Below are positions 18,535-51,158 of a DNA stretch of 64,000 bases, piece after piece; positions within the stretch are counted from its first letter, which is position 1; each line of letters begins with the position of its first letter. The DNA comes from an uncultured virus (IMG/VR IMGVR_UViG_3300002038_000007). Taxonomy: Duplodnaviria; Heunggongvirae; Uroviricota; Caudoviricetes. The DNA lies in the IMG/VR virus record IMGVR_UViG_3300002038_000007; one strand, written 5' to 3'. Made by a program: the position numbers and the translations under genes. The notes beneath the pieces are model-generated. The model was not told the origin of the DNA. It did not search any database and saw nothing but the letters and a program-made list of their open reading frames with translations.

Positions 18535-19022
18535 TGAACGCTCGCCAACTGAAGGACAAGCTTCGCCGTGACATTCGCGACGAGATTCTTGCGATTGATC
18601 CTGACGCTGAGATTACCGATGTTGCCATTGTGTACTGGCAGGATATTGATTGGCGAAGCCATATCAATGGCATTTATTCGGCGATCGATCGGCGCTATGT
18701 AGACACAATGTCAGCTCGCACGATTAAGGCGATGCATCAGCGCATCGATGCTTTGGTAAGCGCCTATAGAGCTGATAAAGAGAACGTACTGGTTGATGAG
18801 ACAGATTACCGTGGTTTAACCATCTACCTCGACCGGGAGGGCGAAGGAGCGGGCGCCATTCAGCCCCAAGGCGGGAGCCCTATTGCTCTCGATGAGGCTT
18901 TTGACGCGGTCTATGAGCTCCTTGATGTGCAGGCGCGAAAGATAGAATCTATGCAACAAGAGCTGAACCGATTCAAGGTGGCTGCTCAGCAGTTAGCGTT
19001 GTCGCTGTCGGAACCGGGTTGA
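18534..19022 (+). CDS. Hypothetical protein with C-terminal coiled coil
   Basis: Coupled 162-aa ORF ending the structural operon. Confidence 0.55.
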   Translation: MNARQLKDKLRRDIRDEILAIDPDAEITDVAIVYWQDIDWRSHINGIYSAIDRRYVDTMSARTIKAMHQRIDALVSAYRADKENVLVDETDYRGLTIYLDREGEGAGAIQPQGGSPIALDEAFDAVYELLDVQARKIESMQQELNRFKVAAQQLALSLSEPG

Positions 19023-19048
19023 CGCATCGTCTCTGGCTCCATTATGGT
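19019..19048 (+). promoter_or_regulatory. Sigma70-type promoter, tRNA module 1
   Basis: TTGACG (19019-24), 18 nt, TATGGT (19043-48); leader ATG 7 nt downstream, so probably a leaderless transcript. Confidence 0.65.
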
Positions 19049-19054
19049 GAGCCA

Positions 19055-19126
19055 ATGATCACTAGCCGCACGTCTTTGTTACGACTCCTGACCGGACCAA
19101 CTTTCGGATCGGAGACTCGCGACTAG
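19055..19126 (+). CDS. Leu-sensing attenuator leader peptide MITSRTSLLRLLTGPTFGSETRD
   Basis: TTG TTA CGA CTC CTG at 19076-90, followed by antiterminator, terminator and three tRNA-Leu genes. Confidence 0.8.
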   Translation: MITSRTSLLRLLTGPTFGSETRD

Positions 19127-19153
19127 TTTTCTAGAACATCGTTGAGCAGGGCA

Positions 19154-19179
19154 GCCTCCGATCTTTCGGGGGCTTTTTT
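19154..19179 (+). terminator. Intrinsic terminator (attenuator 1)
   Basis: GCCTCCGA-TCTT-TCGGGGGC-TTTTTT. Confidence 0.85.
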
Positions 19180-19185
19180 GTGTTG

Positions 19186-19262
19186 GCTGGAGTAGCCCAA
19201 TTGGCAGAGGCACTGGTTTTAGGCACCAGTCAGTGTCGGTTCGAATCCGACCTCCAGTACCA
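19186..19262 (+). tRNA. tRNA-Leu(TAG), short variable loop
   Basis: Cloverleaf; CTGGT-TTTAGGC-ACCAG; encoded CCA. Confidence 0.9.
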
Positions 19263-19339
19263 GCCCAACTGGCGCAATTGGCAGACGCGGCAAGCTTAAA
19301 CCTTGTCTGTTCTCGGTTCGATCCCGAGGTTGGGCACCA
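19263..19339 (+). tRNA. tRNA-Leu(TAA), short variable loop
   Basis: GCAAG-CTTAAAC-CTTGT; CCA. Confidence 0.9.
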
Positions 19340-19340
19340 T

Positions 19341-19417
19341 GCCGAGGTGACGCAATTGGTAGACGTGCTGGCCTCAAAAACCAGATGGTGAGGGTTCGAC
19401 TCCCTCCCTCGGCACCA
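19341..19417 (+). tRNA. tRNA-Leu(CAA), short variable loop
   Basis: CTGGC-CTCAAAA-ACCAG; CCA. Confidence 0.9.
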
Positions 19418-19423
19418 ATCTTC

Positions 19424-19453
19424 TTGACATGATAAATTCCGTCACTCTATATT
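19424..19453 (+). promoter_or_regulatory. Sigma70-type promoter, tRNA module 2
   Basis: TTGACA (19424-29), 18 nt, TATATT (19448-53). Confidence 0.75.
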
Positions 19454-19458
19454 TCCGA

Positions 19459-19534
19459 CGTGCTGTGGAGCAGTGGCTAGCTCGTCAGGCTCATAACCTG
19501 AAGGTCGTCGGTTCGAGTCCGACCAGCGCAACCA
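19459..19534 (+). tRNA. Initiator tRNA-fMet(CAT)
   Basis: C1:A72 mismatch; TCAGG-CTCATAA-CCTGA; CCA. Confidence 0.9.
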
Positions 19535-19551
19535 ACATGAGGTGTATCGAC

Positions 19552-19617
19552 GTGAACGCAATCTACTATTCGTGCTCATGGTTTAGTTCCGAAAAGGGGC
19601 TGCTGACGCACGTGTAA
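19552..19617 (+). CDS. Tyr/Ser/Cys/Trp/Phe-sensing leader peptide MNAIYYSCSWFSSEKGLLTHV
   Basis: GAGGTG RBS then GTG (in-frame ATG also at 19537); nine consecutive control codons TAC TAT TCG TGC TCA TGG TTT AGT TCC. Confidence 0.85.
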   Translation: MNAIYYSCSWFSSEKGLLTHV

Positions 19618-19647
19618 ACGCTTGATCACCATACACCGGCAGTCAGA

Positions 19648-19681
19648 GGTCCCCTCGGAGAAATCCCTGGGGGCCTTTTTT
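19648..19681 (+). terminator. Intrinsic terminator (attenuator 2)
   Basis: GGTCCCC-TCGGAGAAATCCCT-GGGGGCC-TTTTTT. Confidence 0.85.
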
Positions 19682-19689
19682 GTGTCAAC

Positions 19690-19764
19690 GCCTCTGTAGC
19701 TGAGAAGGATTAGCGCCGGTTTGAAGAACCGGAGAGGGCGGCTCGATACCGTCTGGGGGCACCA
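19690..19764 (+). tRNA. tRNA-Phe(GAA)
   Basis: CCGGT-TTGAAGA-ACCGG; CCA. Confidence 0.88.
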
Positions 19765-19784
19765 AACAAGGAGAGTAAAGCGAA

Positions 19785-19857
19785 GGGTAGGAGCCAGGGC
19801 AGTGGGCACGGTCTGTAAAACCGACGCCAGAGGGTTCGAGACCTTCCCTACCCACCA
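19785..19857 (+). tRNA. tRNA-Tyr(GTA), short variable loop
   Basis: CGGT-CTGTAAA-ACCG; acceptor GGGTAGG/CCTACCC; CCA. Confidence 0.85.
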
Positions 19858-19858
19858 T

Positions 19859-19932
19859 GCGGGATTCGTCTAATGGCAAGACAGCGGTCTCCAAAACCGA
19901 CAATGGAGGTTCGATTTCTCCATCCCGTGCCA
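19859..19932 (+). tRNA. tRNA-Trp(CCA)
   Basis: CGGT-CTCCAAA-ACCG; G73 CCA. Confidence 0.9.
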
Positions 19933-19938
19933 AATTAA

Positions 19939-20024
19939 GGATGGTTGGCAGAGTGGTAATGCAGCGCCCTGCTAAGGCGTACAAGGGCAACCTTGCGTTG
20001 GTTCGATCCCAACACCATCCGCCA
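19939..20024 (+). tRNA. tRNA-Ser(GCT)
   Basis: GCGCC-CTGCTAA-GGCGT; long variable arm; CCA. Confidence 0.92.
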
Positions 20025-20025
20025 T

Positions 20026-20101
20026 GATCCGGTAACGCAGAGGCCGACGTGCCTGGCTGCAAACCAGGAATACGCCGGTTCGACTCCGGCCCGGATCTCC
20101 A
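20026..20101 (+). tRNA. tRNA-Cys(GCA)
   Basis: CCTGG-CTGCAAA-CCAGG; U73 CCA. Confidence 0.9.
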
Positions 20102-20102
20102 A

Positions 20103-20189
20103 GGAGGAGAGGTGTATTGGCGGCATAACCGGTCCTGAAAACCGTCCGACCGCAAGGTCGTGTGGGTTCGATTCCCACCTCCTCCGCCA
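20103..20189 (+). tRNA. tRNA-Ser(TGA)
   Basis: CGGT-CCTGAAA-ACCG (C at position 33); long variable arm; CCA. Confidence 0.85.
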
Positions 20190-20199
20190 ACATTTTTGA

Positions 20200-20229
20200 T
20201 TGACAGTCTTATCAACTTATGCGTAACAG
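20200..20229 (+). promoter_or_regulatory. Probable promoter, tRNA module 3
   Basis: TTGACA at 20200-05 within imperfect palindrome TTGACAGTCTTATCAA; weak -10 (TAACAG). Confidence 0.55.
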
Positions 20230-20243
20230 TCATTATCTCTCTC

Positions 20244-20381
20244 ATGGCGAGACCAGCGATGACTATATTTTGCACACGAACAGTCGTCACAATAATCGGG
20301 CAGACCAGCGTCGTCCGTACCAATAAACGCGCCATGACGATGAAGACCATTCGAAATATCCGGCGACATAGACGCGGCTAA
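20244..20381 (+). CDS. Arg/His/Lys/Met/Thr/Ile/Val/Asn-rich leader peptide, 45 aa
   Basis: MARPAMTIFCTRTVVTIIGQTSVVRTNKRAMTMKTIRNIRRHRRG; 35 of 45 residues match the downstream tRNA set. Confidence 0.75.
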   Translation: MARPAMTIFCTRTVVTIIGQTSVVRTNKRAMTMKTIRNIRRHRRG

Positions 20382-20389
20382 TCAACTAG

Positions 20390-20465
20390 CTCCGCGTCGC
20401 CAACTGGACAGGCAGCCAGTCTTCTAAACTGGTTTGTGTGGGTTCGAATCCCGCCGCGGAGTCCA
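20390..20465 (+). tRNA. tRNA-Arg(TCT)
   Basis: CCAGT-CTTCTAA-ACTGG; CCA. Confidence 0.9.
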
Positions 20466-20466
20466 T

Positions 20467-20543
20467 GGTGGCCGTAGCTTAGTGGTAAAAGCGCTGGATT
20501 GTGACTCCAGAGATCGTCGGTTCAAATCCGATCGGCCACCCCA
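20467..20543 (+). tRNA. tRNA-His(GTG) with G-1:C73
   Basis: CTGGA-TTGTGAC-TCCAG; G-GTGGCCG/CGGCCAC-C-CCA. Confidence 0.92.
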
Positions 20544-20549
20544 ATCACC

Positions 20550-20625
20550 CCGCTCGTAGCTCAACAGGAAGAGTCGATGAGTCCTAATCATCAGGTTGCA
20601 AGTTCGAGTCCTGCCGGGAGCCCCA
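20550..20625 (+). tRNA. tRNA-Arg(CCT), acceptor stem defective (possible pseudogene)
   Basis: GATGA-GTCCTAA-TCATC; 5' strand GCTCG versus 3' CGGGAGC looks like a 2-nt deletion. Confidence 0.65.
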
Positions 20626-20630
20626 ATCAT

Positions 20631-20706
20631 GCCCATGTAGCTCAACTGGATGAGCAGCGGTCTACGAAGCCGCGTGATGGAGGTTCGAGTCCTCTCATGG
20701 GCTCCA
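20631..20706 (+). tRNA. tRNA-Arg(ACG)
   Basis: GCGGT-CTACGAA-GCCGC; CCA. Confidence 0.9.
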
Positions 20707-20747
20707 TCCACGAAACACGTCCACGAAAAGATCAATTCGTGGATATC

Positions 20748-20821
20748 GGGCCACAAGCATAGTGGCGATGCGTCGGCCTCTTAACCCGATGAGCACAGTT
20801 CAATTCTGTGGTGGCCTTCCA
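20748..20821 (+). tRNA. tRNA-Lys(CTT)
   Basis: TCGGC-CTCTTAA-CCCGA; CCA. Confidence 0.85.
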
Positions 20822-20846
20822 GAAAGGAGAATGTGACGTTTAATGA

Positions 20847-20920
20847 TCCTGCGTAGCTCAATGGTAGAGCGGGTCGCTCATAACGATTTGACGGTGGTTC
20901 GATTCCACCCGCAGGTACCA
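20847..20920 (+). tRNA. tRNA-Met or Ile2 (CAT)
   Basis: GGTCG-CTCATAA-CGATT; CCA; Met versus Ile2 not resolvable by eye. Confidence 0.85.
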
Positions 20921-20921
20921 C

Positions 20922-20998
20922 GCCCTCGTAACTCAGTGGTCAGAGTAGCTGTTTTGTAATCAGCCGGTCGCGGGTTCGAATCCTCGCCGAGGGCTCCA
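20922..20998 (+). tRNA. tRNA-Thr(TGT)
   Basis: GCTGT-TTTGTAA-TCAGC; CCA. Confidence 0.9.
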
Positions 20999-21001
20999 TT
21001 T

Positions 21002-21075
21002 GCTGGCGTAGCTCAATAGTAGAGCATTCGGCTGATAACCGGACGACGGTGGGGCAGAACCATCCGCCAGTACCA
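21002..21075 (+). tRNA. tRNA-Ile(GAT)
   Basis: TTCGG-CTGATAA-CCGGA; atypical T-loop GGCAGAA; CCA. Confidence 0.85.
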
Positions 21076-21076
21076 T

Positions 21077-21154
21077 AGAAGGGTAGCTCAGCCTGGCCAG
21101 AGCTGCGGTGTTACATACCGCGAGTCGTCGGTTCGAATCCGGCCCCTTCTACCA
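21077..21154 (+). tRNA. tRNA-Val(TAC)
   Basis: GCGGT-GTTACAT-ACCGC; CCA. Confidence 0.9.
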
Positions 21155-21156
21155 GT

Positions 21157-21234
21157 TCCAGGCTGGGGGAATGGTAGACCCGGCTGGCTGTTAACCAGCG
21201 TCTTTTCTCGGTTCGAGTCCGAGGCCTGGAGCCA
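21157..21234 (+). tRNA. tRNA-Asn(GTT)
   Basis: GCTGG-CTGTTAA-CCAGC; CCA. Confidence 0.9.
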
Positions 21235-21247
21235 ATTTTTCTGATGA

Positions 21248-21323
21248 GGGTGTGGGGCCGCACGGCGACGGCAAGATCCTTTTAAGTTCTAGGCAGCAGG
21301 TTCGACTCCTGTCACACCCTCCA
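21248..21323 (+). tRNA. tRNA-Lys(TTT)
   Basis: AGATC-CTTTTAA-GTTCT; acceptor GGGTGTG/CACACCC; CCA. Confidence 0.85.
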
Positions 21324-21603
21324 ATGCTCGGCACATGAGGATGACACGGCGCGACGGTTTTCTTCTGCCGTTGACGAGACGTTCGATGTAGTCTGGGGAG
21401 TAACCTAGAAGTTCGCCGACAGGCGCATAATCGCTTTTGATGCCGGGATGACCTGTGTCGTAATTATGTTCTAAAAACCATTCTCGAAAATTGAATTGCT
21501 CTGGACCGCCCGGTTCCTCGCCGGGCTCGATATCGTCGTATGCCCCACCGGGTCGCCCGCTCGGCTGTTCGGTAGGGTTGGTCGCGGCTGGTTGCGGTTG
21601 CAT
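21289..21603 (-). CDS. XRE-type HTH protein with Gln/Pro/Ala/Glu/Gly/Asp-rich N-terminus (putative autorepressor of tRNA module 4)
   Basis: AAGGA RBS; VGELLGYSPDYIERLVNGRRKPS HTH; last gene of the minus-strand tRNA operon. Confidence 0.8.
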   Translation of the reverse strand: MQPQPAATNPTEQPSGRPGGAYDDIEPGEEPGGPEQFNFREWFLEHNYDTGHPGIKSDYAPVGELLGYSPDYIERLVNGRRKPSRRVILMCRALEGVTGVEPAA

Positions 21604-21622
21604 GACGGTTTCCTTCGAGGGT

Positions 21623-21699
21623 TGGCAGGTCGGGCGGGATTCGAACCCACGATCCTGAATTCAAAGTCCAGAGCATTAGGCCAACTATGCTACCGACCA
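21623..21699 (-). tRNA. tRNA-Gln(TTG)
   Basis: Reverse complement: CTGGA-CTTTGAA-TTCAG; CCA. Confidence 0.9.
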
Positions 21700-21711
21700 G
21701 CAAGAGGGGAT

Positions 21712-21786
21712 TGGCAGCCGCACTAGGACTTGAACCTAGAACATCCACATTCAGAGTGTGGCGCTCTACCATTGAGCTATACGGCA
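21712..21786 (-). tRNA. tRNA-Gln(CTG)
   Basis: CCACA-CTCTGAA-TGTGG; CCA. Confidence 0.9.
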
Positions 21787-21796
21787 TTACCAAGAA

Positions 21797-21870
21797 TGGA
21801 GCGGGAGACGGGAATCGAACCCGTGTCATCAGTTTGGAAGACTGCGGCTCTACCATTGAGCTACACCCGC
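21797..21870 (-). tRNA. tRNA-Gly(TCC)
   Basis: CAGT-CTTCCAA-ACTG; GCGGG acceptor, U73 CCA. Confidence 0.92.
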
Positions 21871-21923
21871 TTAGCTTCCGCCGCCTCCTGAGTAGCTGCC
21901 CCATATGATAAGGCGGCGGAATT

Positions 21924-22001
21924 TGGAGCTGCTGACCGGATTCGAACCGGCATTTTCCAGAGTGAAAATCTGGAGTCCTAGTCCTGTTAGACGACAGCAG
22001 C
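21924..22001 (-). tRNA. tRNA-Glu(TTC)
   Basis: CCAGA-TTTTCAC-TCTGG; CCA. Confidence 0.9.
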
Positions 22002-22006
22002 AAAAC

Positions 22007-22082
22007 TGGCGAGCGTAAGGGGATTCGAACCCCTGTTGTCGGATAGACAATCCGAAGTCCTAGGCCTCTGGACGATACGCCC
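22007..22082 (-). tRNA. tRNA-Asp(GTC)
   Basis: TCGGA-TTGTCTA-TCCGA; CCA. Confidence 0.9.
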
Positions 22083-22087
22083 GTTGT

Positions 22088-22163
22088 TGGAACCGCCAAC
22101 CGGATTTGAACCGGTGTTTTCAGGTTGAGAACCTGATGTCCTTGACCGCTAGACGATGGCGAT
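22088..22163 (-). tRNA. tRNA-Glu(CTC)
   Basis: TCAGG-TTCTCAA-CCTGA; CCA. Confidence 0.9.
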
Positions 22164-22164
22164 T

Positions 22165-22240
22165 TGGTCAGGGTGGCTGGCACTGCCCCAGCGACCCCCT
22201 GCTTCCAAGGCAGGTACTCTGCTAGCTGAGCTACACCCTG
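22165..22240 (-). tRNA. tRNA-Pro(TGG)
   Basis: CCTGC-CTTGGAA-GCAGG; atypical T-loop GGCAGTG; CCA. Confidence 0.88.
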
Positions 22241-22241
22241 T

Positions 22242-22316
22242 TGGTGGATCTGGCAGGATTCGAACCCGCAACCTTCGCTGTGCAAAAGCGCTGCTCTCCC
22301 GTTGAGCTACAAACCC
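22242..22316 (-). tRNA. tRNA-Ala(TGC)
   Basis: CGCT-TTTGCAC-AGCG; G3:U70; CCA. Confidence 0.92.
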
Positions 22317-22329
22317 GATGATGTGGAGA

Positions 22330-22358
22330 TACTTAACGGACAAAATCCGTTAAGTCAA
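22330..22358 (-). promoter_or_regulatory. Promoter of tRNA module 4 with overlapping palindromic operator
   Basis: Minus strand TTGACT, 17 nt, TAAGTA; perfect inverted repeat ACTTAACGGA-N5-TCCGTTAAGT (22331-55) spans it. Confidence 0.8.
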
Positions 22359-22381
22359 TTATGGAATGATCGGCTGGTGAT

Positions 22382-22630
22382 CTAAGTATCTAGCTCTATC
22401 GTCACCATCATACCTTCAATCGGCAGGATCACAGGCGGGCTCTTAGGCACACGCCACAGCGCGCCCCTGCTATTCAAAATGAACCAGAACCCATCGACGA
22501 ATTTGTAGGTGGTGCCATCGCGGCATGGTGGCTTTGGGAGAGGCGTTGGGGGCGATGCGAGCGACGCGGCGCAGACTGGTATGGATGCGAAACCGATGGG
22601 AGCGGATCGAAGGAAGTCTCGACGGTTCAT
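22382..22630 (-). CDS. Small hypothetical protein with Tat-like N-terminus
   Basis: MNRRDFLR; ATGA overlap with upstream gene. Confidence 0.5.
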   Translation of the reverse strand: MNRRDFLRSAPIGFASIPVCAASLASPPTPLPKPPCRDGTTYKFVDGFWFILNSRGALWRVPKSPPVILPIEGMMVTIELDT

Positions 22631-23346
22631 GGGCTGTTATTAAAACAGTAAATGCATCGGTCTAATCCAATGGCGATCTCTAACACAGCAACGTCTTTGT
22701 TTTTTATTTGCGTAGGAAAGTCGGTTCGCTTTGAAATGGAGCACAGCTCCATCCACTTTTCGCCATTGTTGACTTCGACGTCCATTGTCAAGGTCGAGTA
22801 AGAGGGCAGCCGGTCGGATTCAATAATCCTTGTTGGCAATCCAAGGGCTTGATGAAACATCGCCTCAGCGTGTGGCCAAAATGACCCGTGGTAGTCATTT
22901 CCGCTATCGGCAGAGTAAGCACATTGAAATTCGAGCTGGTAGAATTCCTTCAGTCTCATATGCTTCACGGGCTGGATTTGCTCTCGTCGGAAGGACTTCC
23001 CGTATTGCCAGCAGCAGTATGGCAAACGGACTTTGTCATGTGACTCTAGTCGCTGCATCATATGAGCATAAGACGACGCGGTTGTTTCGGGGCGAAGGAT
23101 TAACCAGTGATCATGCTCGTCGGCGACGCGTTGATCAAAGACATCGGTCTCTGCGTCATAGGCGTCAGACAACAAGTTGACCGGCATAAGCAATGGTGCT
23201 TCGATTTGTTCAAATGACCATGCCTGATTCATGCCTAACAGGCGATCACGAACTGATATCGAAAAGAAGTCGATCAACCAGTTTCTGGTCTTGATGTCCT
23301 TCTCTGACCATGTCACCAGCCCGTTGATATCGAAAGTATTATCCAT
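22627..23346 (-). CDS. Class II aminoacyl-tRNA synthetase catalytic core (GlyRS alpha2-like), no anticodon-binding domain
   Basis: LRPETT, motif 2 QYGKSFRRE...RLKEFYQLEFQ, motif 3 LEIAIGLDR; only 239 aa. Confidence 0.85.
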   Translation of the reverse strand: MDNTFDINGLVTWSEKDIKTRNWLIDFFSISVRDRLLGMNQAWSFEQIEAPLLMPVNLLSDAYDAETDVFDQRVADEHDHWLILRPETTASSYAHMMQRLESHDKVRLPYCCWQYGKSFRREQIQPVKHMRLKEFYQLEFQCAYSADSGNDYHGSFWPHAEAMFHQALGLPTRIIESDRLPSYSTLTMDVEVNNGEKWMELCSISKRTDFPTQIKNKDVAVLEIAIGLDRCIYCFNNSP

Positions 23347-23836
23347 CAGGGAGATCCACCAACGCCTTTAACTTCTGGGCAAGAAACTCACATTCTGCGG
23401 TAACGTAGGCAAGATCACGATAAGGAGGCGGGAGGGGTTGGAAAGACAAGTGTTGCATCATCTCCCTCTCTCGAGAAACCATAGCTGGTAGCAAATCGGA
23501 ACCATGGGCGCAGTCAAACCCAAACCACCAAACATGATCGGATTCGCCTTCGCCTGGAATATGGCAGATAGAGTTCTTTTCATCACCTTCGGAACAAGGG
23601 CCGCTGAAGGTGAGTCCACCGTGAACATCGAAGTCGATATCGGCGTAGTTTTTTTCAAAAAACGGATGCCTTCGCTCGACACCAACGTAGCCGCACAAAC
23701 CGCCGAAACGATTGCGCACGATCAGACAAGGGAGCCCCGTCTCCTTGTCCTTCCATTGTTTTTTGTCAGGCTCGTCCTGCCAAGCGCCGTCCCCCCAGTC
23801 TGACTTATCCATCGTTTGATAGGTTATCGTTTCCAT
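23339..23836 (-). CDS. Conserved phage hypothetical protein
   Basis: LCGYVGV...HP...VHGGLTFS...WWFGFDCAH motif recognised from phage proteins. Confidence 0.7.
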   Translation of the reverse strand: METITYQTMDKSDWGDGAWQDEPDKKQWKDKETGLPCLIVRNRFGGLCGYVGVERRHPFFEKNYADIDFDVHGGLTFSGPCSEGDEKNSICHIPGEGESDHVWWFGFDCAHGSDLLPAMVSREREMMQHLSFQPLPPPYRDLAYVTAECEFLAQKLKALVDLPDG

Positions 23837-29115: not shown

Positions 29116-29408
29116 TCGCCATGATTGTGTTTGCTGTCCCTGAAATGACCGAAAAAGCTATCGCGGCCCTTCTGTGCGCGTGGCTGCTGTTGGTCTTTGT
29201 CGTTGTCGTTCCGATCGTGCTGACAATGGCCTTTTTTTACTGGTGTTTACTCCCGGCGCCTTACCGCACGTTTGACGAAATCGGCAAGGCTTGTGATCGG
29301 AAACGCCCGTCATGATCGAATTCTCTTATGGCGTCGCCACGCTGATCGGGATTGCCATCCTGCTTCGGCTTGCGGTCTCGGCCGTGCTTGCTGCACTGGG
29401 TGGATCCA

Positions 29409-29843
29409 ATGATCAGGGTTGATCATTGGAGCGATGCCGTCGCGTCCGGTGAATGGCGCTGGGAGCGCTTCTCAGCGGAGCTGATGGCTTGCCGGTGCTG
29501 CGGCCGCCTTGAGATCGACCAGGGCTTCATGGACCGCCTGAGCGCGCTCAGGGAGGCGTTTGGTGAGCCGATGCGGGAAACGTCGGGCTACCGGTGCCCT
29601 ATTCACAACGCCAATGAGTCACCAACCGGCTTAACCGGGCCGCACACCATGGGTCGCGCAGTCGACATCGCAATCTATGGAAAAAGCTTGTTCAAGCTGC
29701 TGCCGCTGGCCTTCGAGCATGGCTTCACCGGTATCGGCGATAAACAAAAGAGCGGCTCGGATTACAACCAGCGTTTTTTGCATCTCGATGACCTTCAGGA
29801 TCATGAGCACACTGGGCCGCGGCCTTGGAAGTGGACTTACTAA
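29409..29843 (+). CDS. Peptidase M15A (D-Ala-D-Ala carboxypeptidase-like) endolysin
   Basis: FSAELMACRCCG, TSGYRCPIHN, HTMGRAVDI, FLHLD. Confidence 0.88.
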   Translation: MIRVDHWSDAVASGEWRWERFSAELMACRCCGRLEIDQGFMDRLSALREAFGEPMRETSGYRCPIHNANESPTGLTGPHTMGRAVDIAIYGKSLFKLLPLAFEHGFTGIGDKQKSGSDYNQRFLHLDDLQDHEHTGPRPWKWTY

Positions 29844-35038: not shown

Positions 35039-36097
35039 TCACCCCTTCCTCCATTTCTGCGCCGCCTCAGCAGCTTCTCGAACATGTGATCTACGACGAT
35101 GGGCATAGCGCCTGGTCGTCGAGAGCGATGAGTGGTGCAACGCATCCTGCACCAATGCCACGTCACCCGTAGCGTCCATCAGGGATTGGGCGAAGGTGTG
35201 GCGAAGATCATGGAAACGGACATCCGGTAGACCTGCATCGCATCGCGATCGTTCCCAAATGCCCTTGATGGATCTGATCTGGGCGCCGTCTCGGGTAAAC
35301 ACCGGCCCGAGATCCTTTGGGCCTATGCGGGTCAGGATTTCCATCGCCCATTCTGTAAGCTCCACCGGATTTGACTTTTTCCCTTTTCCGATCGGAACAA
35401 TCTTTTGTTTTTCGAGATCGACATCCCGCCATTGCAAAGAGAATATAGGTGCTCGCCTAAGCCCGGTGGCGAGGGCGAACTCAACGATATCAGCAAGCCA
35501 GGGAGGGCAGGCGTTGATCAAAAGCCGCTGCTCACTCGTCGATAGATTGCGCTCAACCGTTTCCGCCTCAGGCCTCATCAAGGCTTCCCAGGAGACCGAC
35601 GGAACGTCTTCCCATTGCCAAAGACGCTGGGCTTTTCTCATAGCGCCCCGGAGCACTGCCAGGCGACGGTTTATCGTCGCGTTCGTGGGCAGCTTTGGCT
35701 TGTTCGATCGTCGATCCATCACGACCTGCTGACGAGATCGGTTATAAACCGGAGTCGTTCGCCATTTTGTGACGGCTTCGGAAATGCGAGATGTGGTCAA
35801 ATCGGCAATACGAGAGTGATCTCCGAATTCATCAGTCATGGTCTCCAAGTGCTGACCGATGGTTCGCGCCCATGCCAGACCTTCAGCGTGCTCCGTCCAA
35901 TATTTTTCCATCATGTTAGAGAATGTATGTTGGCCCGCCGCTTCGGCTGCGTCTTCTGCTTTGAGCCTTTGTTCCAAGGCCTGGACGTCCCGCTTGCGCG
36001 GGTAGTCTTTCGCTTTGACCGTTTGCTGACAGCGCGTGCCATCTCCCCGATAGAATCGGATGATCCAATTTCCGTTTTTTCTTTTATAGACCGGCAT
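35039..36097 (-). CDS. int: Tyrosine recombinase (phage integrase)
   Basis: ATGLRR, RFHDLRHT, LHHSSLSTTRRY catalytic motifs. Confidence 0.93.
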   Translation of the reverse strand: MPVYKRKNGNWIIRFYRGDGTRCQQTVKAKDYPRKRDVQALEQRLKAEDAAEAAGQHTFSNMMEKYWTEHAEGLAWARTIGQHLETMTDEFGDHSRIADLTTSRISEAVTKWRTTPVYNRSRQQVVMDRRSNKPKLPTNATINRRLAVLRGAMRKAQRLWQWEDVPSVSWEALMRPEAETVERNLSTSEQRLLINACPPWLADIVEFALATGLRRAPIFSLQWRDVDLEKQKIVPIGKGKKSNPVELTEWAMEILTRIGPKDLGPVFTRDGAQIRSIKGIWERSRCDAGLPDVRFHDLRHTFAQSLMDATGDVALVQDALHHSSLSTTRRYAHRRRSHVREAAEAAQKWRKG

Positions 36098-38137: not shown

Positions 38138-38539
38138 TTAAGCCGATGATATGCTAGAAGGCATTATTTCTTGATTTTGATCAGCAGCGACCTCCGGTGG
38201 ATGTGGCGTTGCCTTCTTGGTAAGCACCTCCTCGATCGTCAGTTTTTTCCAGCCAGCAACCAAGGCAGAATATTGTGCCCATTCTGGCGAATAAGCTTTA
38301 ATAATGTCCCAAAAATTGACAATCCTCCCTTCGTCGGAAAGAGAATAGCCGCCAGTCGGACCTTTTTTAGAAACAAGCCAACCTTTTGAAACCATGTCTT
38401 GGAGGATTGGTTCATAATAACGGGCCGCTCTGTTATTTGCTGCCGCGATGACATCCCGCTGTGTAAGCGCCGTGCCGTCTTGGATACCTCGCAAAGTAAC
38501 CAAAACTTCGCATGCACTCAGAACCTTTTTTCCAATCAT
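38138..38539 (-). CDS. Rrf2-family transcriptional regulator
   Basis: YYEPILQDMVSKGWLVSKKGPTGGYSL; no Fe-S Cys triad. Confidence 0.8.
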   Translation of the reverse strand: MIGKKVLSACEVLVTLRGIQDGTALTQRDVIAAANNRAARYYEPILQDMVSKGWLVSKKGPTGGYSLSDEGRIVNFWDIIKAYSPEWAQYSALVAGWKKLTIEEVLTKKATPHPPEVAADQNQEIMPSSISSA

Positions 38540-40299: not shown

Positions 40300-40599
40300 A
40301 TGGCGACCTCAGTTGAAACCCACTCAAGCCTTTCCGCCGTCATTTCGACACTTACAGCCGAGTATATGAACACATCAGGAATGGATGTTTTTACTGTGGC
40401 GGAAAGAATACAAAAAATGCAATCTGAACTTATTGATAATTACATTTCTTCAAGTGATACATTAACTGTAGGTGTCGACCATGCCGCGGACAAACTTGTT
40501 ATGACGCTCAATATGCTTGACTTGGATGACGAAGATCCGCTTGAGCGGGCGCATAAGCAAAATTTAACGCTCGCTGTGGATACCCTTCGCAGCCTCTAA
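40300..40599 (+). CDS. Hypothetical protein in immunity region (AT-rich)
   Basis: 99-aa ORF convergent with the repressor. Confidence 0.45.
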   Translation: MATSVETHSSLSAVISTLTAEYMNTSGMDVFTVAERIQKMQSELIDNYISSSDTLTVGVDHAADKLVMTLNMLDLDDEDPLERAHKQNLTLAVDTLRSL

Positions 40600-40944
40600 G
40601 GTGGCTGAGATGTCCCGGATTGATTTAGTGAGGAGGGGAGAGGCTTCCTTTGCCTTCATATCACCACACACTATCCAAGCAGCACCAACGCCGAGCGCTT
40701 CGATTAGCGCTGGCAGTTTGTGGATCTCCGGTGTCCTGCGTCCAGCTTCCCAGGCGCTCCAAACGTCCCTGTTATATTTAAAATGGTCAGCCGCGGCGAT
40801 GGCCGTTTCGTAACCAAGCGCCAAACGCGTGATCACCAAGCGCTCACCAAAGCCTGTGCGATAGGCCTGCCTTTCCAACTTGTCCAAATCTGCGCTCGCT
40901 ACCACTGGAATCCTCTGCTTATTTCTTAGCAGCACATTATGCAT
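40564..40944 (-). CDS. CI-like XRE repressor
   Basis: FGERLVITRLALG...WSAWEAGRRTP...LIEALGVGAAWIVCG; divergent from 41019. Confidence 0.8.
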   Translation of the reverse strand: MHNVLLRNKQRIPVVASADLDKLERQAYRTGFGERLVITRLALGYETAIAAADHFKYNRDVWSAWEAGRRTPEIHKLPALIEALGVGAAWIVCGDMKAKEASPLLTKSIRDISATLEAAKGIHSER

Positions 40945-41018
40945 AACAGCTTGTTAAATGCAAATAAGCGCAGATCCCTCTTGATAGTCTGACAGTCTGT
41001 TATGTAGAGTGCCTCCTT

Positions 41019-41327
41019 ATGTCTGAACAACGATCAAAAAAGAACGGCCGCGAGAAGCTGACTGTAGGGCATCTGGTTCGTGCTTTCGGCGGAAACGCAG
41101 CATTTATCGAGGCGCTCAATCGACAGGTTCAAAAGCATGCGGGCAAAAACTCGCCAAAGTTGAAATTTGTCAACCTCGATATCATCATGAACCGGGGCTA
41201 TATCCCGGCTAAATGGGCCTGGTGGGTCCGTAATGCCATGGAAGAGAGCGATATCAAGGCCGTCAAGGCGATCACTCCTGAGGATTTGGAGAGAGCCGAG
41301 CTAATCCCATTACCGTACAACCGATGA
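41019..41327 (+). CDS. Cro-like protein
   Basis: LVRAFGGNAAF...RGYIPAKW; divergent from repressor with shared operator motifs. Confidence 0.55.
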   Translation: MSEQRSKKNGREKLTVGHLVRAFGGNAAFIEALNRQVQKHAGKNSPKLKFVNLDIIMNRGYIPAKWAWWVRNAMEESDIKAVKAITPEDLERAELIPLPYNR

Positions 41328-43257: not shown

Positions 43258-44469
43258 ATGACTTCGCTTCCCTTCATGCCTTTGGCTGTAGAAGCTTATA
43301 TCACCGACACAAGTCATCTCGATGATGGCGAGCAAGGTCGATACATAAGCCTTCTTTTACGCATGTGGGTTTCTCCAAATCAGCGCATACCAAATGACGA
43401 TAATTGGATCGCAAAGAGATTTCATCGCACTGATGATGACGTCAAAAACCTATGGCGCCCGATCATCAAAGAGTTTCTCAAATGCGATGGAAATTGGATT
43501 TACAGCAAAAGACTCCAAGAAGAATACCAAAAAGCCGTAAAACGGTCGCAAAAACAAAGCGATCGGGCTAAGTCACGGTGGAATAAGGAAAAATCCAAAA
43601 CCCATGGCATTGCAACGCCTGCATTGCAGGATGTAACGCCGCGGCATGTGCAAGGACACATGTGTGACGAGGAAGATGGAATCGCCGATTCGGACAACCC
43701 TTTGAATGAAAAGAGTTTAGGCGACAGCCGCGGGAATGCACCTACACTTACACCTACACTTACACCTATAGATTCAGAGTCTCATACAGACTCAGAGTCT
43801 CCTAAAAAAGACTCAGAGAATGATAATACCATTTGTCCAGCTGCGCCGGACGAACCGGAAAAACCATTCGAAGATTTCGACGACTTTTGGAAGTGCTGGA
43901 GACTGGCCGGCGCCAAGCGGGGCAGTAAGCCCAGGTCAAAACAGCTGTACGAAAAAATCACCCGCTCAAGAAAACGATCCCACCAAGAACTTTGTGCAGA
44001 TGTGGAACGCCTTCAGCGATTTTACGAAACAAACGGAACCGAGGTTTCGAAAATGCTGCATCCAGCAACCTGGCTTTACCAGGAGCGTTGGAACGACGAA
44101 CTTGTAGGCGACACACTTAACGGAGATTCCCATGGCCGACAGGGATCAAAATCATCTCGCGCTGGTATCACCCACCGGCTCGATCAGTACCGAGCAGCTC
44201 CGCTTGACGACGGTGGAGGAGGCCGCACAATTTCTGGAGATTATGTGGTCCACGATGAGGGTGAGCCAGCACCAGGAGATCCACGAACAACAGATCGTGG
44301 ATTATTTCATGGCGATGATGACCAAAACGCCGTTCCCGCAAACAGAACGGGCCGTCAAGCATCTGCTAGCAACGGAGGATTGGTTTCCGACGCCGGCTGG
44401 TTTCCAGAGGGCGAGGTTTCACCGGGAGATCAACCCCATGTTTCGGGTCGAATAGGACGCCGGAGATGA
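43258..44469 (+). CDS. Replication initiator (YdaU/DUF1376 N-terminus) with internal iterons
   Basis: LPFMPL...YITDTSHL...EQGRY..LL..MW; FDDFW; HPATWLYQERWNDE. Confidence 0.85.
   Translation: MTSLPFMPLAVEAYITDTSHLDDGEQGRYISLLLRMWVSPNQRIPNDDNWIAKRFHRTDDDVKNLWRPIIKEFLKCDGNWIYSKRLQEEYQKAVKRSQKQSDRAKSRWNKEKSKTHGIATPALQDVTPRHVQGHMCDEEDGIADSDNPLNEKSLGDSRGNAPTLTPTLTPIDSESHTDSESPKKDSENDNTICPAAPDEPEKPFEDFDDFWKCWRLAGAKRGSKPRSKQLYEKITRSRKRSHQELCADVERLQRFYETNGTEVSKMLHPATWLYQERWNDELVGDTLNGDSHGRQGSKSSRAGITHRLDQYRAAPLDDGGGGRTISGDYVVHDEGEPAPGDPRTTDRGLFHGDDDQNAVPANRTGRQASASNGGLVSDAGWFPEGEVSPGDQPHVSGRIGRRR
43739..43819 (+). repeat. Putative origin iterons
   Basis: CACCTACACTTA about 2.5 copies, then GA(T/C)TCAGAG three times. 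Confidence 0.6.
44132..44455 (+). CDS. Helicase loader/inhibitor-like protein nested in the initiator ORF
   Basis: GGAG RBS; AVKHLLATEDWFPTPA resembles G39P-like loaders. Confidence 0.55.
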   Translation: MADRDQNHLALVSPTGSISTEQLRLTTVEEAAQFLEIMWSTMRVSQHQEIHEQQIVDYFMAMMTKTPFPQTERAVKHLLATEDWFPTPAGFQRARFHREINPMFRVE

Positions 44470-49650: not shown

Positions 49651-50349
49651 ATGACCCAAGCAACCCCGATGCCTTGGTATAGCACGCCTGCTGGTATTTT
49701 CGCAGAAGGTGGGGAGGCCATCGCAATCCCGATTAAGCAACCCAACGCCGACCTAATCGTCCGCGCCGTCAATGCTCATGATGAGCTGGTGGCGGCTTTG
49801 GAGGAGGCCATTACCTGGAACAGCCATGACGACGAAGACGTTCCCGCTGTGTGGCTCGACCAAGCCAAAGCAGCGTTGGCTAAGGCGATGTATGCCGTGA
49901 TGTCTGGAGAAGTGAATAGTACCCCTGCGTCTTCTGAGGACTGGGCTAAGAAGAGGTCGCTCGACCTAGAGCCGATTAAGGCGCGGGCGGAAGCAGCAAC
50001 GCCAGAACCTTGGGTGGCATCGAACGAGGGTGGAACGGCATTTCTTATGGAAGGCGACCAAGATGGCGATTTGTTAGTTAACGATTCTGATGGACAGTTT
50101 TTTGAGCGCTGGGATGTTCTCTTTTGCGCCCACGCTCGCCAGGACATCCCAGCGCTCATCGCCGAAATCGAACGCCTGCGAGACGAGAAATCCACGATCG
50201 CTGCAGATCTTGTTTTGGAGAAGTTACTAAAAAACCGGCTAAGTCACAAGATTGATACGGCACAAAGCATCTTGTCCCAGACTCAGGGCGGAATGAACGG
50301 TGCCGAGCCAAAAGACATGGTCGCCGATCTGGCTAAGCTGCTTCTATGA
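49651..50349 (+). CDS. Ead/Ea22-like phage protein
   Basis: NADLIVRAVNAHDELV; IKARAEAATPEPW...AHARQDIPALIAEIERLR. Confidence 0.65.
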   Translation: MTQATPMPWYSTPAGIFAEGGEAIAIPIKQPNADLIVRAVNAHDELVAALEEAITWNSHDDEDVPAVWLDQAKAALAKAMYAVMSGEVNSTPASSEDWAKKRSLDLEPIKARAEAATPEPWVASNEGGTAFLMEGDQDGDLLVNDSDGQFFERWDVLFCAHARQDIPALIAEIERLRDEKSTIAADLVLEKLLKNRLSHKIDTAQSILSQTQGGMNGAEPKDMVADLAKLLL

Positions 50350-51158
50350 CCGCTCTGCCCCAATCCACCGTCGATCAAGTTCTTGCGCTCCATGTGCAAG
50401 GAAGCCCGTCTCTTGCAACCATCGCCAAGGCGACCGGGATTACTCACCGATCGACGGTGAGACGAATCCTGCTCAGAGCTGGGCTTTCGACATCATCAGG
50501 TCGAGTCAATCCGGGCAAGCGCAAATATGATTGGGAGGCGATGAGGCATGACTGGCATAACGGTATGTCTCACGCGGATATCGCCAAGAAGCATGGATGC
50601 TCGGACGCCACAGCAAGGAGGGTCGTCGGCAGGGTTCGGTGTTTCGATTTAGAACTGATAGCTCTAGATCGGATGTGCGGAATGCCACGCCACAAAATTT
50701 TGAAGAAGCGTCGGTGTAGTCTCGGGACATACTACGCCGCGATGGAGGCGGGCGGTGTCCACCCTCATGCGATCCAGTGCGCTGAGAATATCAACCCCTC
50801 TCTCAAGCGGCTGGTATTTGCGCTCAATGATCGAGGGTTCACGTTGAAAGGTGTTGTGGCTCGAATTGGCCACCCTCTGTCCGTGGTGCATAAGTGGTTC
50901 ATGGGAAAAACTTCGCCAAGTTTGGAGGCGTTCGAAAATCTGGCTGAACTCGCGAAAAAGCAGATCCGTCTTGACGATGTCTCGGAATGGCAAGGCGAAC
51001 AGGCTATGACGGATTTCGAGAAGGAGCTAATGTCTTTGCATTACGATGGCGCTTTGCCGGTTAGAACAATGCAAAGGCACCTGCAGATAAGCGACTCACG
51101 GTATCGTCGCTTCCTTAAGCGGCATGGCATTCCTAGCCGTGGGGAGGATGGCTTTTGA
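50346..51158 (+). CDS. Multi-HTH DNA-binding protein
   Basis: IAKATGITHRSTVRRIL; MSHADIAKKHGCSDATARR; VVARIGHPLSVVHKW. Confidence 0.7.
   Translation: MTALPQSTVDQVLALHVQGSPSLATIAKATGITHRSTVRRILLRAGLSTSSGRVNPGKRKYDWEAMRHDWHNGMSHADIAKKHGCSDATARRVVGRVRCFDLELIALDRMCGMPRHKILKKRRCSLGTYYAAMEAGGVHPHAIQCAENINPSLKRLVFALNDRGFTLKGVVARIGHPLSVVHKWFMGKTSPSLEAFENLAELAKKQIRLDDVSEWQGEQAMTDFEKELMSLHYDGALPVRTMQRHLQISDSRYRRFLKRHGIPSRGEDGF

Follow-up and report, generated by a model that had tools for sequence, protein, structure and literature searches.

How might a phage that carries many tRNA genes adjust the output of those genes? The question is raised by a locus in IMGVR_UViG_3300002038_000007, an uncultured virus of the Caudoviricetes from which we analysed a stretch of 64,000 nucleotides (here called the window). 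On the minus strand of the window, a row of eight tRNA genes ends in an open reading frame (ORF) for a small helix-turn-helix (HTH) protein, and a perfect inverted repeat lies just ahead of the first tRNA gene. An earlier note on this DNA had proposed that the protein is an unstable autorepressor with an operator in the promoter of its own operon, and that its synthesis depends on the tRNAs encoded in front of it. Our analysis indicates that the observations in that note were largely correct and that an autorepressor with its own operator is a reasonable reading of the sequence; the tRNA-sensing and degron parts of the proposal are unsupported. Our analysis shows how the genes are ordered and spaced, and it also shows the palindrome, an HTH-like fold and a protein family. 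The explanation that we favour is a plain autorepressor loop, in which the product of the last cistron is predicted to bind the palindrome and to cap transcription of the tRNA row, and to which we assign a probability of roughly 0.4.

The row consists, as had been noted, of genes for Ala, Pro, Glu, Asp, Glu, Gly, Gln and Gln followed by the HTH gene. ARAGORN predicted seven of the eight tRNAs, and the Pro gene was detected by Rfam only. In the direction of transcription, the genes are tRNA-Ala(TGC) (22242..22316; ARAGORN, and Rfam with 61.9 bits), tRNA-Pro(TGG) (22168..22240; Rfam, 48.7 bits) with a non-canonical T-loop, GGCAGTG, and then, each found by both ARAGORN and Rfam, tRNA-Glu(CTC) (22088..22163), tRNA-Asp(GTC) (22007..22082), tRNA-Glu(TTC) (21924..22001), tRNA-Gly(TCC) (21797..21870), tRNA-Gln(CTG) (21712..21786) and tRNA-Gln(TTG) (21623..21699), the last of which has an encoded CCA end. 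The spacers along the row measure 1, 1, 5, 5, 53, 10 and 12 nt. The 53-nt spacer, between tRNA-Glu(TTC) and tRNA-Gly, is filled by a GC-rich hairpin on the same strand (21876..21921), a perfect inverted repeat with a stem of 11-12 bp, a loop of ~24 nt and no U-tract (fold, -24.3 kcal/mol), which is probably an RNA processing or structural element. The ATG of the HTH ORF (21289-21603, minus strand; 104 aa) begins 19 nt past the encoded CCA of tRNA-Gln(TTG), and a Shine-Dalgarno-like sequence, GAAGGAAA (21609..21616, minus strand), could be read 5 nt ahead of the ATG (7 nt for its core AAGGA). No terminator-like site was predicted on the minus strand from 22316 to 20756, nor on the plus strand past tRNA-Lys(TTT) (21248..21323; ARAGORN and Rfam), the last gene of a plus-strand array that converges on the row. 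Because the gap between tRNA-Gln and the ATG is only 19 nt and no such site was predicted between 22316 and 21289, co-transcription of the row with the HTH gene is plausible. Since no terminator-like site parts the two arrays, transcription of each probably continues through the HTH gene into the other; read-through from the plus-strand array would run antisense to the whole of that gene (21289-21603), and read-through from the minus strand would be antisense to tRNA-Lys, tRNA-Asn and tRNA-Val.

That the 104-aa gene is real can be read from the Shine-Dalgarno-like site before its ATG together with six relatives of its product that share a conserved HTH core. A word-indexed search of 5.8 billion proteins returned three relatives, and a HMMER profile scan of 1.84 billion representatives returned six proteins at E<=0.001, five of which belong to the family (P0003-P0007); the other, P0008 (270 aa, E 4.4e-4), matches over a 33-residue stretch only and was left out of the alignment. 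The family as we define it thus contains seven sequences, the window protein and six relatives (P0002-P0007), and all of the relatives come from metagenome assemblies, with one or two contigs apiece. In the alignment, 14 columns are invariant, and apart from Pro18 all of them fall within the C-terminal 68 residues; the recognition helix (S/A-x-D-Y-I-E-R-L-V-N-G-R-R) is nearly invariant among P0001-P0005.

The earlier assignment of the protein to the XRE-type HTH proteins is plausible from the predicted fold and the family, but the Pfam support stays below threshold. HTH_31 matched residues 62-91 of the window protein with an E-value of 2.5e-5 and 24.9 bits, short of its cutoff of 27, and HTH_3 reached 15.6 bits against a cutoff of 23; HTH_31 also matched six of the seven family members at E<=0.01, at best with 7.7e-7. 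The NCBIfam scan of the protein gave no match, and a sequence search of the PDB with the family profile gave nothing meaningful. Pfam and AlphaFold2 place a four-helix Cro/XRE-like domain at codons 37-97 (21313..21495, minus strand), behind a tail of 36 codons (21496..21603, minus strand) that is predicted to be disordered, is acidic and rich in Pro, Gly, Glu and Gln, and includes the sequence DIEPGEEPGG. In the AlphaFold2 model, built from a four-row alignment, helices span residues 39-46, 56-66, 70-77 and 85-97. The predicted local distance difference test score (pLDDT) is 85-86 over residues 61-90, with a mean of 65; residues 1-38 and 98-104 are disordered, and the N-terminal tail has a pLDDT of ~50 and no secondary structure. 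Foldseek matches in the PDB were weak (best E 0.27; template modelling scores of 0.32-0.43), and nearly all of them were of the XRE type: Aca11 at the top, DdrO, SinR, the GraA/HigA antitoxins, C.BclI, C.AhdI, YdaS, P22 c2 and 434. Among ESM Atlas models, the look-alikes of residues 34-104 were phage YdaS/Cro-like proteins of 60-65 aa (0.92), which we treat as a lead only. A homodimer prediction for the same residues, run without controls, scored 0.01, which counts neither for nor against a dimer. The product looks like a small Cro/YdaS-like XRE protein, as judged from the model, the alignment and the sub-threshold Pfam call.

What might such a protein bind? The perfect inverted repeat ACTTAACGGA-N5-TCCGTTAAGT (22331..22355), with 10-bp arms and a 5-bp spacer, is a candidate operator or RNA hairpin located 14 nt upstream of the 5' end of tRNA-Ala and 26 nt past the stop codon of an 82-aa ORF. 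It occupies the 65-nt gap between that stop (22382) and tRNA-Ala (22316), which reads …CATAATTGACTTAACGGATTTTGTCCGTTAAGTATCTCCACATCATC on the minus strand before the tRNA begins and is the only sizeable non-coding stretch upstream of the row. The palindrome is the sole match to its own pattern in the 64-kb window at up to three mismatches, and the pattern had 0 matches in the viral contig collection. It is notable for its position and not for its existence, because the number of perfect inverted repeats in the window is near the null expectation: nine loci (14 rows) have repeats of at least 10 bp with spacers no longer than 30 nt, and two loci (3 rows) have those with spacers of 3-8 nt, for which a rough null from a first-order Markov model (60 replicates, heavy tail) gives ~1.7 rows and simple arithmetic for random sequence gives 0.4. 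The inner core, 6-N5-6, covers 17 bp, and the centres of its half-sites lie 11 bp apart. Half-site centres separated by one helical turn are the geometry of Cro/CI-type operators, and by this analogy the palindrome would suit a dimeric Cro-type HTH protein. Only one further full half-site exists in the window (44115-44124), inside a replication gene, which fits a dedicated regulator with a single operator; the 8-mer TTAACGGA likewise has one other copy (44117-44124), a count that was matched in 10 of 100 shuffles.

According to the autorepressor loop that we favour, the eight minus-strand tRNAs and the 104-aa gene would form one transcription unit, from which the HTH mRNA would be freed by the normal 3' processing of the tRNA precursor, leaving a 19-nt leader with the Shine-Dalgarno-like site. 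An HTH dimer on the single palindrome before tRNA-Ala would then dampen the transcription entering the row. The output of the operon would set the level of the repressor and the repressor would cap the output, a negative autoregulation of the type known from Aca proteins and restriction-modification controllers, and the loop would work without codon-specific sensing of tRNAs. The HTH protein would be an accessory, local regulator, because the phage encodes a separate DicA/RstR-like repressor whose intergenic region contains no similar motif.

Several observations weigh against the autorepressor loop, some of which concern the promoter. The earlier note had placed the palindrome over the promoter of the row; the repeat itself is perfect and unique, but the promoter scan called no promoter in the gap before tRNA-Ala. 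The best sigma-70-type match is a weak candidate, TTGACT-N18-AAGTAT (22329..22358, minus strand), which encloses the palindrome and agrees with the consensus at 8 of 12 positions, as does CTTAGA-N17-CATAAT; of 3,044 stretches of 84 nt drawn at random from the window, 938 reach this score. Judged by the consensus of Sinorhizobium meliloti, CTTGAC-N17-CTATAT (PMC2873474), the best match is CTTAAC-N16-GTATCT, with 9 of 12 positions in another register, a score reached in 159 of the 3,044 stretches (5%). A local promoter ahead of tRNA-Ala is thus a weak candidate at chance level, although the palindrome falls between or over the hexamers in every register scored. The candidate start would fall within ~10 nt of the mature 5' end of the tRNA, as is also the case where a strong TTGACA-N18-TATATT site abuts tRNA-Met at 19459. 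Moreover, the related loci that could reveal co-conservation of the regulator and the palindrome did not appear in the collections of viral, genome and metagenome contigs or in those of phages and plasmids: a tblastn search with the HTH protein found no match among 50,697 phage records and 72,556 plasmids, and searches of the viral, metagenome and genome contig collections with the protein and the family alignments returned only two spurious loci. We rejected one of these because its match is a weak one of 30 residues on a eukaryote-like contig without tRNAs (L001), and the other because it belongs to a phage of low GC content and represents a Cro/CI switch of the generic kind, again without tRNAs (L002).

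The palindrome might instead act as RNA. As a transcript, the region forms a hairpin of 10-11 bp with a predicted energy of -16.7 kcal/mol (z -4.4; none of 200 shuffles was as stable), and this stable structure also counts against the operator. The three same-strand genes upstream of the row (22382..23836) overlap one another by 4-8 nt, and because they are so tightly coupled, the row may be transcribed by read-through from them, besides or in place of a local promoter. In such a transcript, the hairpin, which lies 26 nt past the stop codon of the last of these genes and 14 nt before the tRNA, would become a 3'-terminal stabiliser or processing signal after RNase P had cut at the 5' end of tRNA-Ala, and the HTH protein would regulate a target outside the view of the window. 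The phage probably uses hairpins at the RNA level elsewhere, namely that at 21876-21921 within the operon and that at 29405-29430; the plus-strand side also has a hairpin (19153-19174) 12 nt before its first tRNA; and the chance-level promoter match is as this alternative would have it. On the other hand, neither strand carries a U-tract after the palindrome, which rules out an intrinsic terminator; the stem is a perfect Watson-Crick palindrome in which only four of ten pairs are G-C; a TTGAC motif abuts it; and no other target of the HTH protein was seen in the window, where the sole other full half-site lies inside the replication gene. We regard this explanation as possible, if doubtful. 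It is improbable, in our judgement, that the palindrome is the operator of some other regulator, such as the DicA/RstR-like repressor, an Rrf2 protein or a host factor, which would silence the row in lysogens while the terminal HTH protein had another role. The phage does encode candidates, recognised in PHROG and Pfam scans, including the DicA/RstR-like immunity repressor with its HTH_31 domain (40564-40944), which faces a divergent gene, an Rrf2 protein (38138-38539) and a multi-HTH protein (50346-51158), and it also has a tyrosine integrase (35039-36097). However, the immunity region (40880-41080) contains no motif akin to the palindrome, no second copy of the palindrome exists in the 64 kb, which would be unusual for an immunity repressor, and regulators of such a size usually act beside their own gene.

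The earlier note went further than a plain loop and took the first 36 codons of the HTH gene for a sensor, which would tie the production of an unstable autorepressor with an AA tag to the tRNAs of the row, so that scarcity of any of these tRNAs would derepress the operon. Its counts were exact. Of the first 36 residues, 28 are A, P, E, D, G or Q, and the tract uses CAA and CAG, GAA and GAG, GAT and GAC, and all four CCN codons. With eight Pro, six Gly, five Glu, four Gln, three Ala and two Asp (tied with two Thr), the six amino acids of the row are the six commonest of the tract, and 28 of 36 is the maximum that any set of six residues attains. The tract is unique in the phage: only two of 15,367 segments of 36 aa reach 28 such residues, both in the HTH ORF, and the next best has 24 (89 non-overlapping ORFs of at least 60 aa, with ORFs over the tRNA array excluded and a background fraction of 0.38 for the six residues). 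The tails of five of the seven family members consist of A, P, E, D, G and Q to 62-86%, including that of P0006 (25 of 29), which has another residue order and a like composition. A precedent for the principle exists in TrcR of Anabaena, the level of which is described as falling under translation stress, with derepression of a tRNA array (PMC10272220). The agreement between the amino acids of the row and the composition of the tract is the only real support for the sensor idea.

No corresponding signal was found at the codon level. Given the amino acids of the tract and the preferences among synonymous codons in 42 genes of the phage, codons that are Watson-Crick cognates of the row's tRNAs number 13 against 13.4 expected (P(>=13) 0.69), and those readable with wobble number 20 against 18.5 (P 0.31); the use of all synonymous codons is likewise what phage-wide usage predicts. 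None of the six Gly codons is GGA, the cognate of tRNA-Gly(UCC), and four of the six are GGC or GGT; these, and the GCC, CCC and CCT codons that are also present, are unreadable by the U34 tRNAs of the row under the standard wobble rules. Residues of this kind are usual in disordered, acidic, Pro-rich tails. Ahead of the conserved F-[ND]-F motif, the tails of the family measure 36, 46, 38, 53, 29, 13 and 9 residues, and the two shortest, those of P0004 and P0007, leave two of the seven members without a long tract. The tail of P0005 contains 10 Arg or Lys residues, and the Arg and Lys tRNAs of this phage lie on the opposite strand. The exact decapeptide DIEPGEEPGG recurs in four of the seven members, whose overall identity is only 49-73%, and therefore points to a short peptide motif rather than to a codon tract defined by composition alone. 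No terminator-like structure that could couple stalling to transcription was found in or past the tract on the minus strand, nor any other coupling device of the terminator/antiterminator kind, and, short of depletion, these tRNAs are also provided by the host.

The degron on which the sensor model also relies fares little better. The protein does end in AA, antisense to tRNA-Lys(TTT) as described, and the two genes overlap by 35 nt on opposite strands. The last 11 codons and the stop codon (21289..21323, minus strand) lie antisense to the T-arm and acceptor of that tRNA, and the additional C-terminal residues EGVTGVEPAA are the in-frame reverse complement of its T-arm and acceptor end. In the alignment, the relatives are shorter by 7-9 residues at this end (…DASE, …DADK, …ATD, …LIA). 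An AA end is found in only two of the seven members, the window protein and P0005 (…DATAA), the others ending in SE, DK, TD, IA and NS, and the C-terminal extension of the window protein looks like read-through to the first stop codon as dictated by the tRNA gene. In a screen of C-terminal tags in Escherichia coli, a terminal Ala-Ala was necessary and by itself insufficient, Pro, His, Gly and short polar residues were depleted at the third-last position, and strong tags were Leu-rich and neutral or positively charged (PMC10862746). VEPAA, in which the third-last residue is Pro and the one ahead of it Glu, fails both of these preferences, and the claim of a ClpXP degron is therefore weak, although the preferences were measured in E. 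coli and such a degron is conceivable in another host. Taking the tract and the C-terminus together, we find the tRNA-sensor model barely credible.

The genomic setting of the row is as follows. On the plus strand, PHROG and Pfam scans revealed genes for tail fibres and large structural proteins in the region up to 19 kb, and the same scans recognised further genes for ParA and an actin-like partition protein, an RNA ligase, a primase/helicase and a single-stranded DNA-binding protein; the virus from which the window comes is a temperate phage. One DNA sequencing run, labelled as an algae metagenome, contains the stretch, and no RNA run is listed as containing it. The divergent region at the DicA/RstR-like repressor (40880-41020) contains a tandem TCTGACAGTCTG-type repeat, unrelated to the palindrome, and is probably the immunity operator region. 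The other short-spaced repeat mentioned above, at 29405-29430, has perfect arms of 11 bp separated by 4 nt (TCCAATGATCA...TGATCATTGGA). It covers both the stop codon with which a small hydrophobic ORF ends and the ribosome-binding site, GGAG, of a Peptidase_M15 (endolysin-like) gene with its ATG at ~29434. Because of this overlap, the repeat may act as RNA; it looks like a translational-coupling hairpin, and we dropped the idea that the AT-rich perfect palindromes of the phage are in general DNA operators.

The whole tRNA array extends from 19186 to 22316, with 26 tRNA genes by ARAGORN, to which Rfam adds tRNA-Ile(GAT) (21002-21072), the tRNA-Pro(TGG) of the row and a weak tRNA-Tyr-like gene (19785-19854); the anticodons of these Rfam-only genes were read by eye. 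The tRNA-Tyr(GTA)-like gene, on the plus strand, has an odd D-arm and scores 28.3 bits against a threshold of 29. With it, the array would cover all 20 amino acids, and 20 or 21 plus-strand genes converge with the 8 on the minus strand. Two of the genes missed by ARAGORN, tRNA-Pro(TGG) (minus strand) and tRNA-Ile(GAT) (plus strand; Rfam 52.3 bits), have the T-loops GGCAGTG and GGCAGAA, and the rest of the array has loops of the TTCGA type. The sequence GGGGCAG also occurs in the loop of the spacer hairpin (21896-21902); 3 of its 11 copies in the window lie within the 3.1-kb array, and its count over the whole window is at chance level. At the front of the plus-strand array (19019-19186), a promoter-like TTGACG-N18-TATGGT is followed by a strong terminator-like hairpin with a T-run, the one at 19153-19174, located 12 nt ahead of the first gene, tRNA-Leu. 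The near-consensus TTGACA-N18-TATATT (19424-19459, plus strand) ends 5 nt before tRNA-Met, and its transcript would therefore start almost at the mature 5' end. A Megablast search of 19000-23400 against phage records gave a single tRNA-like match of 55 nt.

The three minus-strand genes upstream of the row encode a phrog_2164 protein (23339-23836), a 239-aa protein related to the core of class II aminoacyl-tRNA synthetases (22627-23346; Pfam and NCBIfam matches far below the cutoffs) and the 82-aa protein (22382-22630). The second is a stand-alone paralogue of the class II catalytic core, nearest to GlyRS and HisRS, encoded just upstream of the tRNA row. A search with it gave 1,778 matches; among the 120 matches listed, homologues with 52-57% identity occur in Rhizobium, Devosia, Mesorhizobium and Agrobacterium, and proteins of this kind of ~250 aa are common in Rhizobiales genomes. 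Copies with 38-50% identity occur in jumbo phages of Sinorhizobium, Brevundimonas and Caulobacter, and in Sinorhizobium phage Phosso the gene shares an island with those for an RNA ligase, CysRS, a tRNA and a peptidyl-tRNA hydrolase. No locus was returned for this protein from the viral contig collection. Because the homologues sit in Rhizobiales genomes and in phages of alphaproteobacteria, the host of the phage is probably an alphaproteobacterium. The 82-aa ORF has a twin-arginine-like start, RRDFLR (MNRRDFLRS...), with weak Pfam TAT matches (E 0.07-0.47), and is translationally coupled to the synthetase-related gene by a 4-nt overlap. For the 162-aa protein of the left neighbour, the search found no homologue besides itself.

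How does the locus compare with known systems? Its closest functional precedent is TrcR, described as an autoregulated ribbon-helix-helix repressor of trn, a tRNA operon in Anabaena sp. PCC 7120, which binds the site TGTAGTAT over the -10 box of the trn promoter and falls in level under translation (elongation) stress, so that the trn array is derepressed; two cyanophage homologues of TrcR are also mentioned there (PMC10272220). The likeness would lie in a long tRNA array with a dedicated, autoregulated repressor acting at its promoter, and the logic is that proposed in the earlier note, with binding predicted here and shown for TrcR. The differences are substantial: TrcR has a ribbon-helix-helix fold, whereas the phage protein is an all-helical HTH protein; TrcR is a cellular protein encoded elsewhere on the chromosome and controls a regulon, whereas the phage gene lies inside the tRNA operon; and the TrcR site covers the -10 box, whereas the phage candidate is a 25-bp palindrome. 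A second parallel is offered by the Aca proteins, HTH autorepressors that are encoded by the last gene of acr-aca operons and are described as acting through inverted repeats in the promoter (PMC6765145, PMC9410906, PMC8633003). Here too a small phage HTH protein is encoded by the last gene of a putative operon, and Aca11 is its top structural neighbour, albeit a weak one (E 0.27). In the Aca operons, however, the upstream genes are anti-CRISPRs rather than tRNAs, and there is no sequence kinship beyond the generic fold; the operator of the phage protein is a predicted one. The phage locus would join TrcR-like control of a tRNA array with the last-gene logic of Aca and C proteins.

The C proteins of restriction-modification systems and repressors of the Cro/CI type have the four- or five-helix XRE fold, bind as dimers to a palindrome over the -35 and -10 elements and regulate their own expression. 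As a rule they act on two or three operators side by side and lack a long disordered tail at the N-terminus, whereas the phage locus has one palindrome and the phage protein an acidic tail of 36 residues. A protein cistron behind a row of tRNAs is familiar from the thrU-tyrU-glyT-thrT-tufB operon of E. coli, in which a single transcript is made and the cistron is released by tRNA processing. There, in contrast, the downstream gene encodes a translation factor and not a regulator, and we know of no feedback of the tufB product on the promoter of that operon. In trp and his attenuation and in bldA/TTA control, a short codon-biased tract reports the supply of charged tRNA; attenuators use runs of one codon with terminator and antiterminator hairpins, whereas the phage tract is mixed, unbiased in its codons, placed in the last gene and without a coupled RNA switch.

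Many phages carry tRNA arrays, and to our knowledge the switching of those arrays has hardly been described. In a full-text literature search, the coverage of which excludes most subscription journals, we found no description of a phage tRNA operon with an XRE-type regulator encoded in cis, and TrcR of Anabaena was the only dedicated repressor of a tRNA array to surface. If the palindrome proved to be an RNA hairpin only, what remained would be a rare family of HTH proteins in which a disordered tail is conserved, an ordinary result. A more ambitious version of the autorepressor loop, very unlikely in our estimation, would be a homeostatic tRNA supply of the phage, in which a repressor embedded in the tRNA operon and overlapped in antisense by the converging array would report translational capacity by its own abundance and retune the row, with its conserved acidic Pro/Gly tail setting its rate of synthesis or its stability. 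Such a circuit, if real, would be an independent, phage-borne and cis-encoded counterpart of the cyanobacterial TrcR-trn circuit. The plain loop, if true, would mean that a regulator inside a phage tRNA operon, acting on a single candidate operator, provides a compact feedback system for the viral supply of tRNAs.

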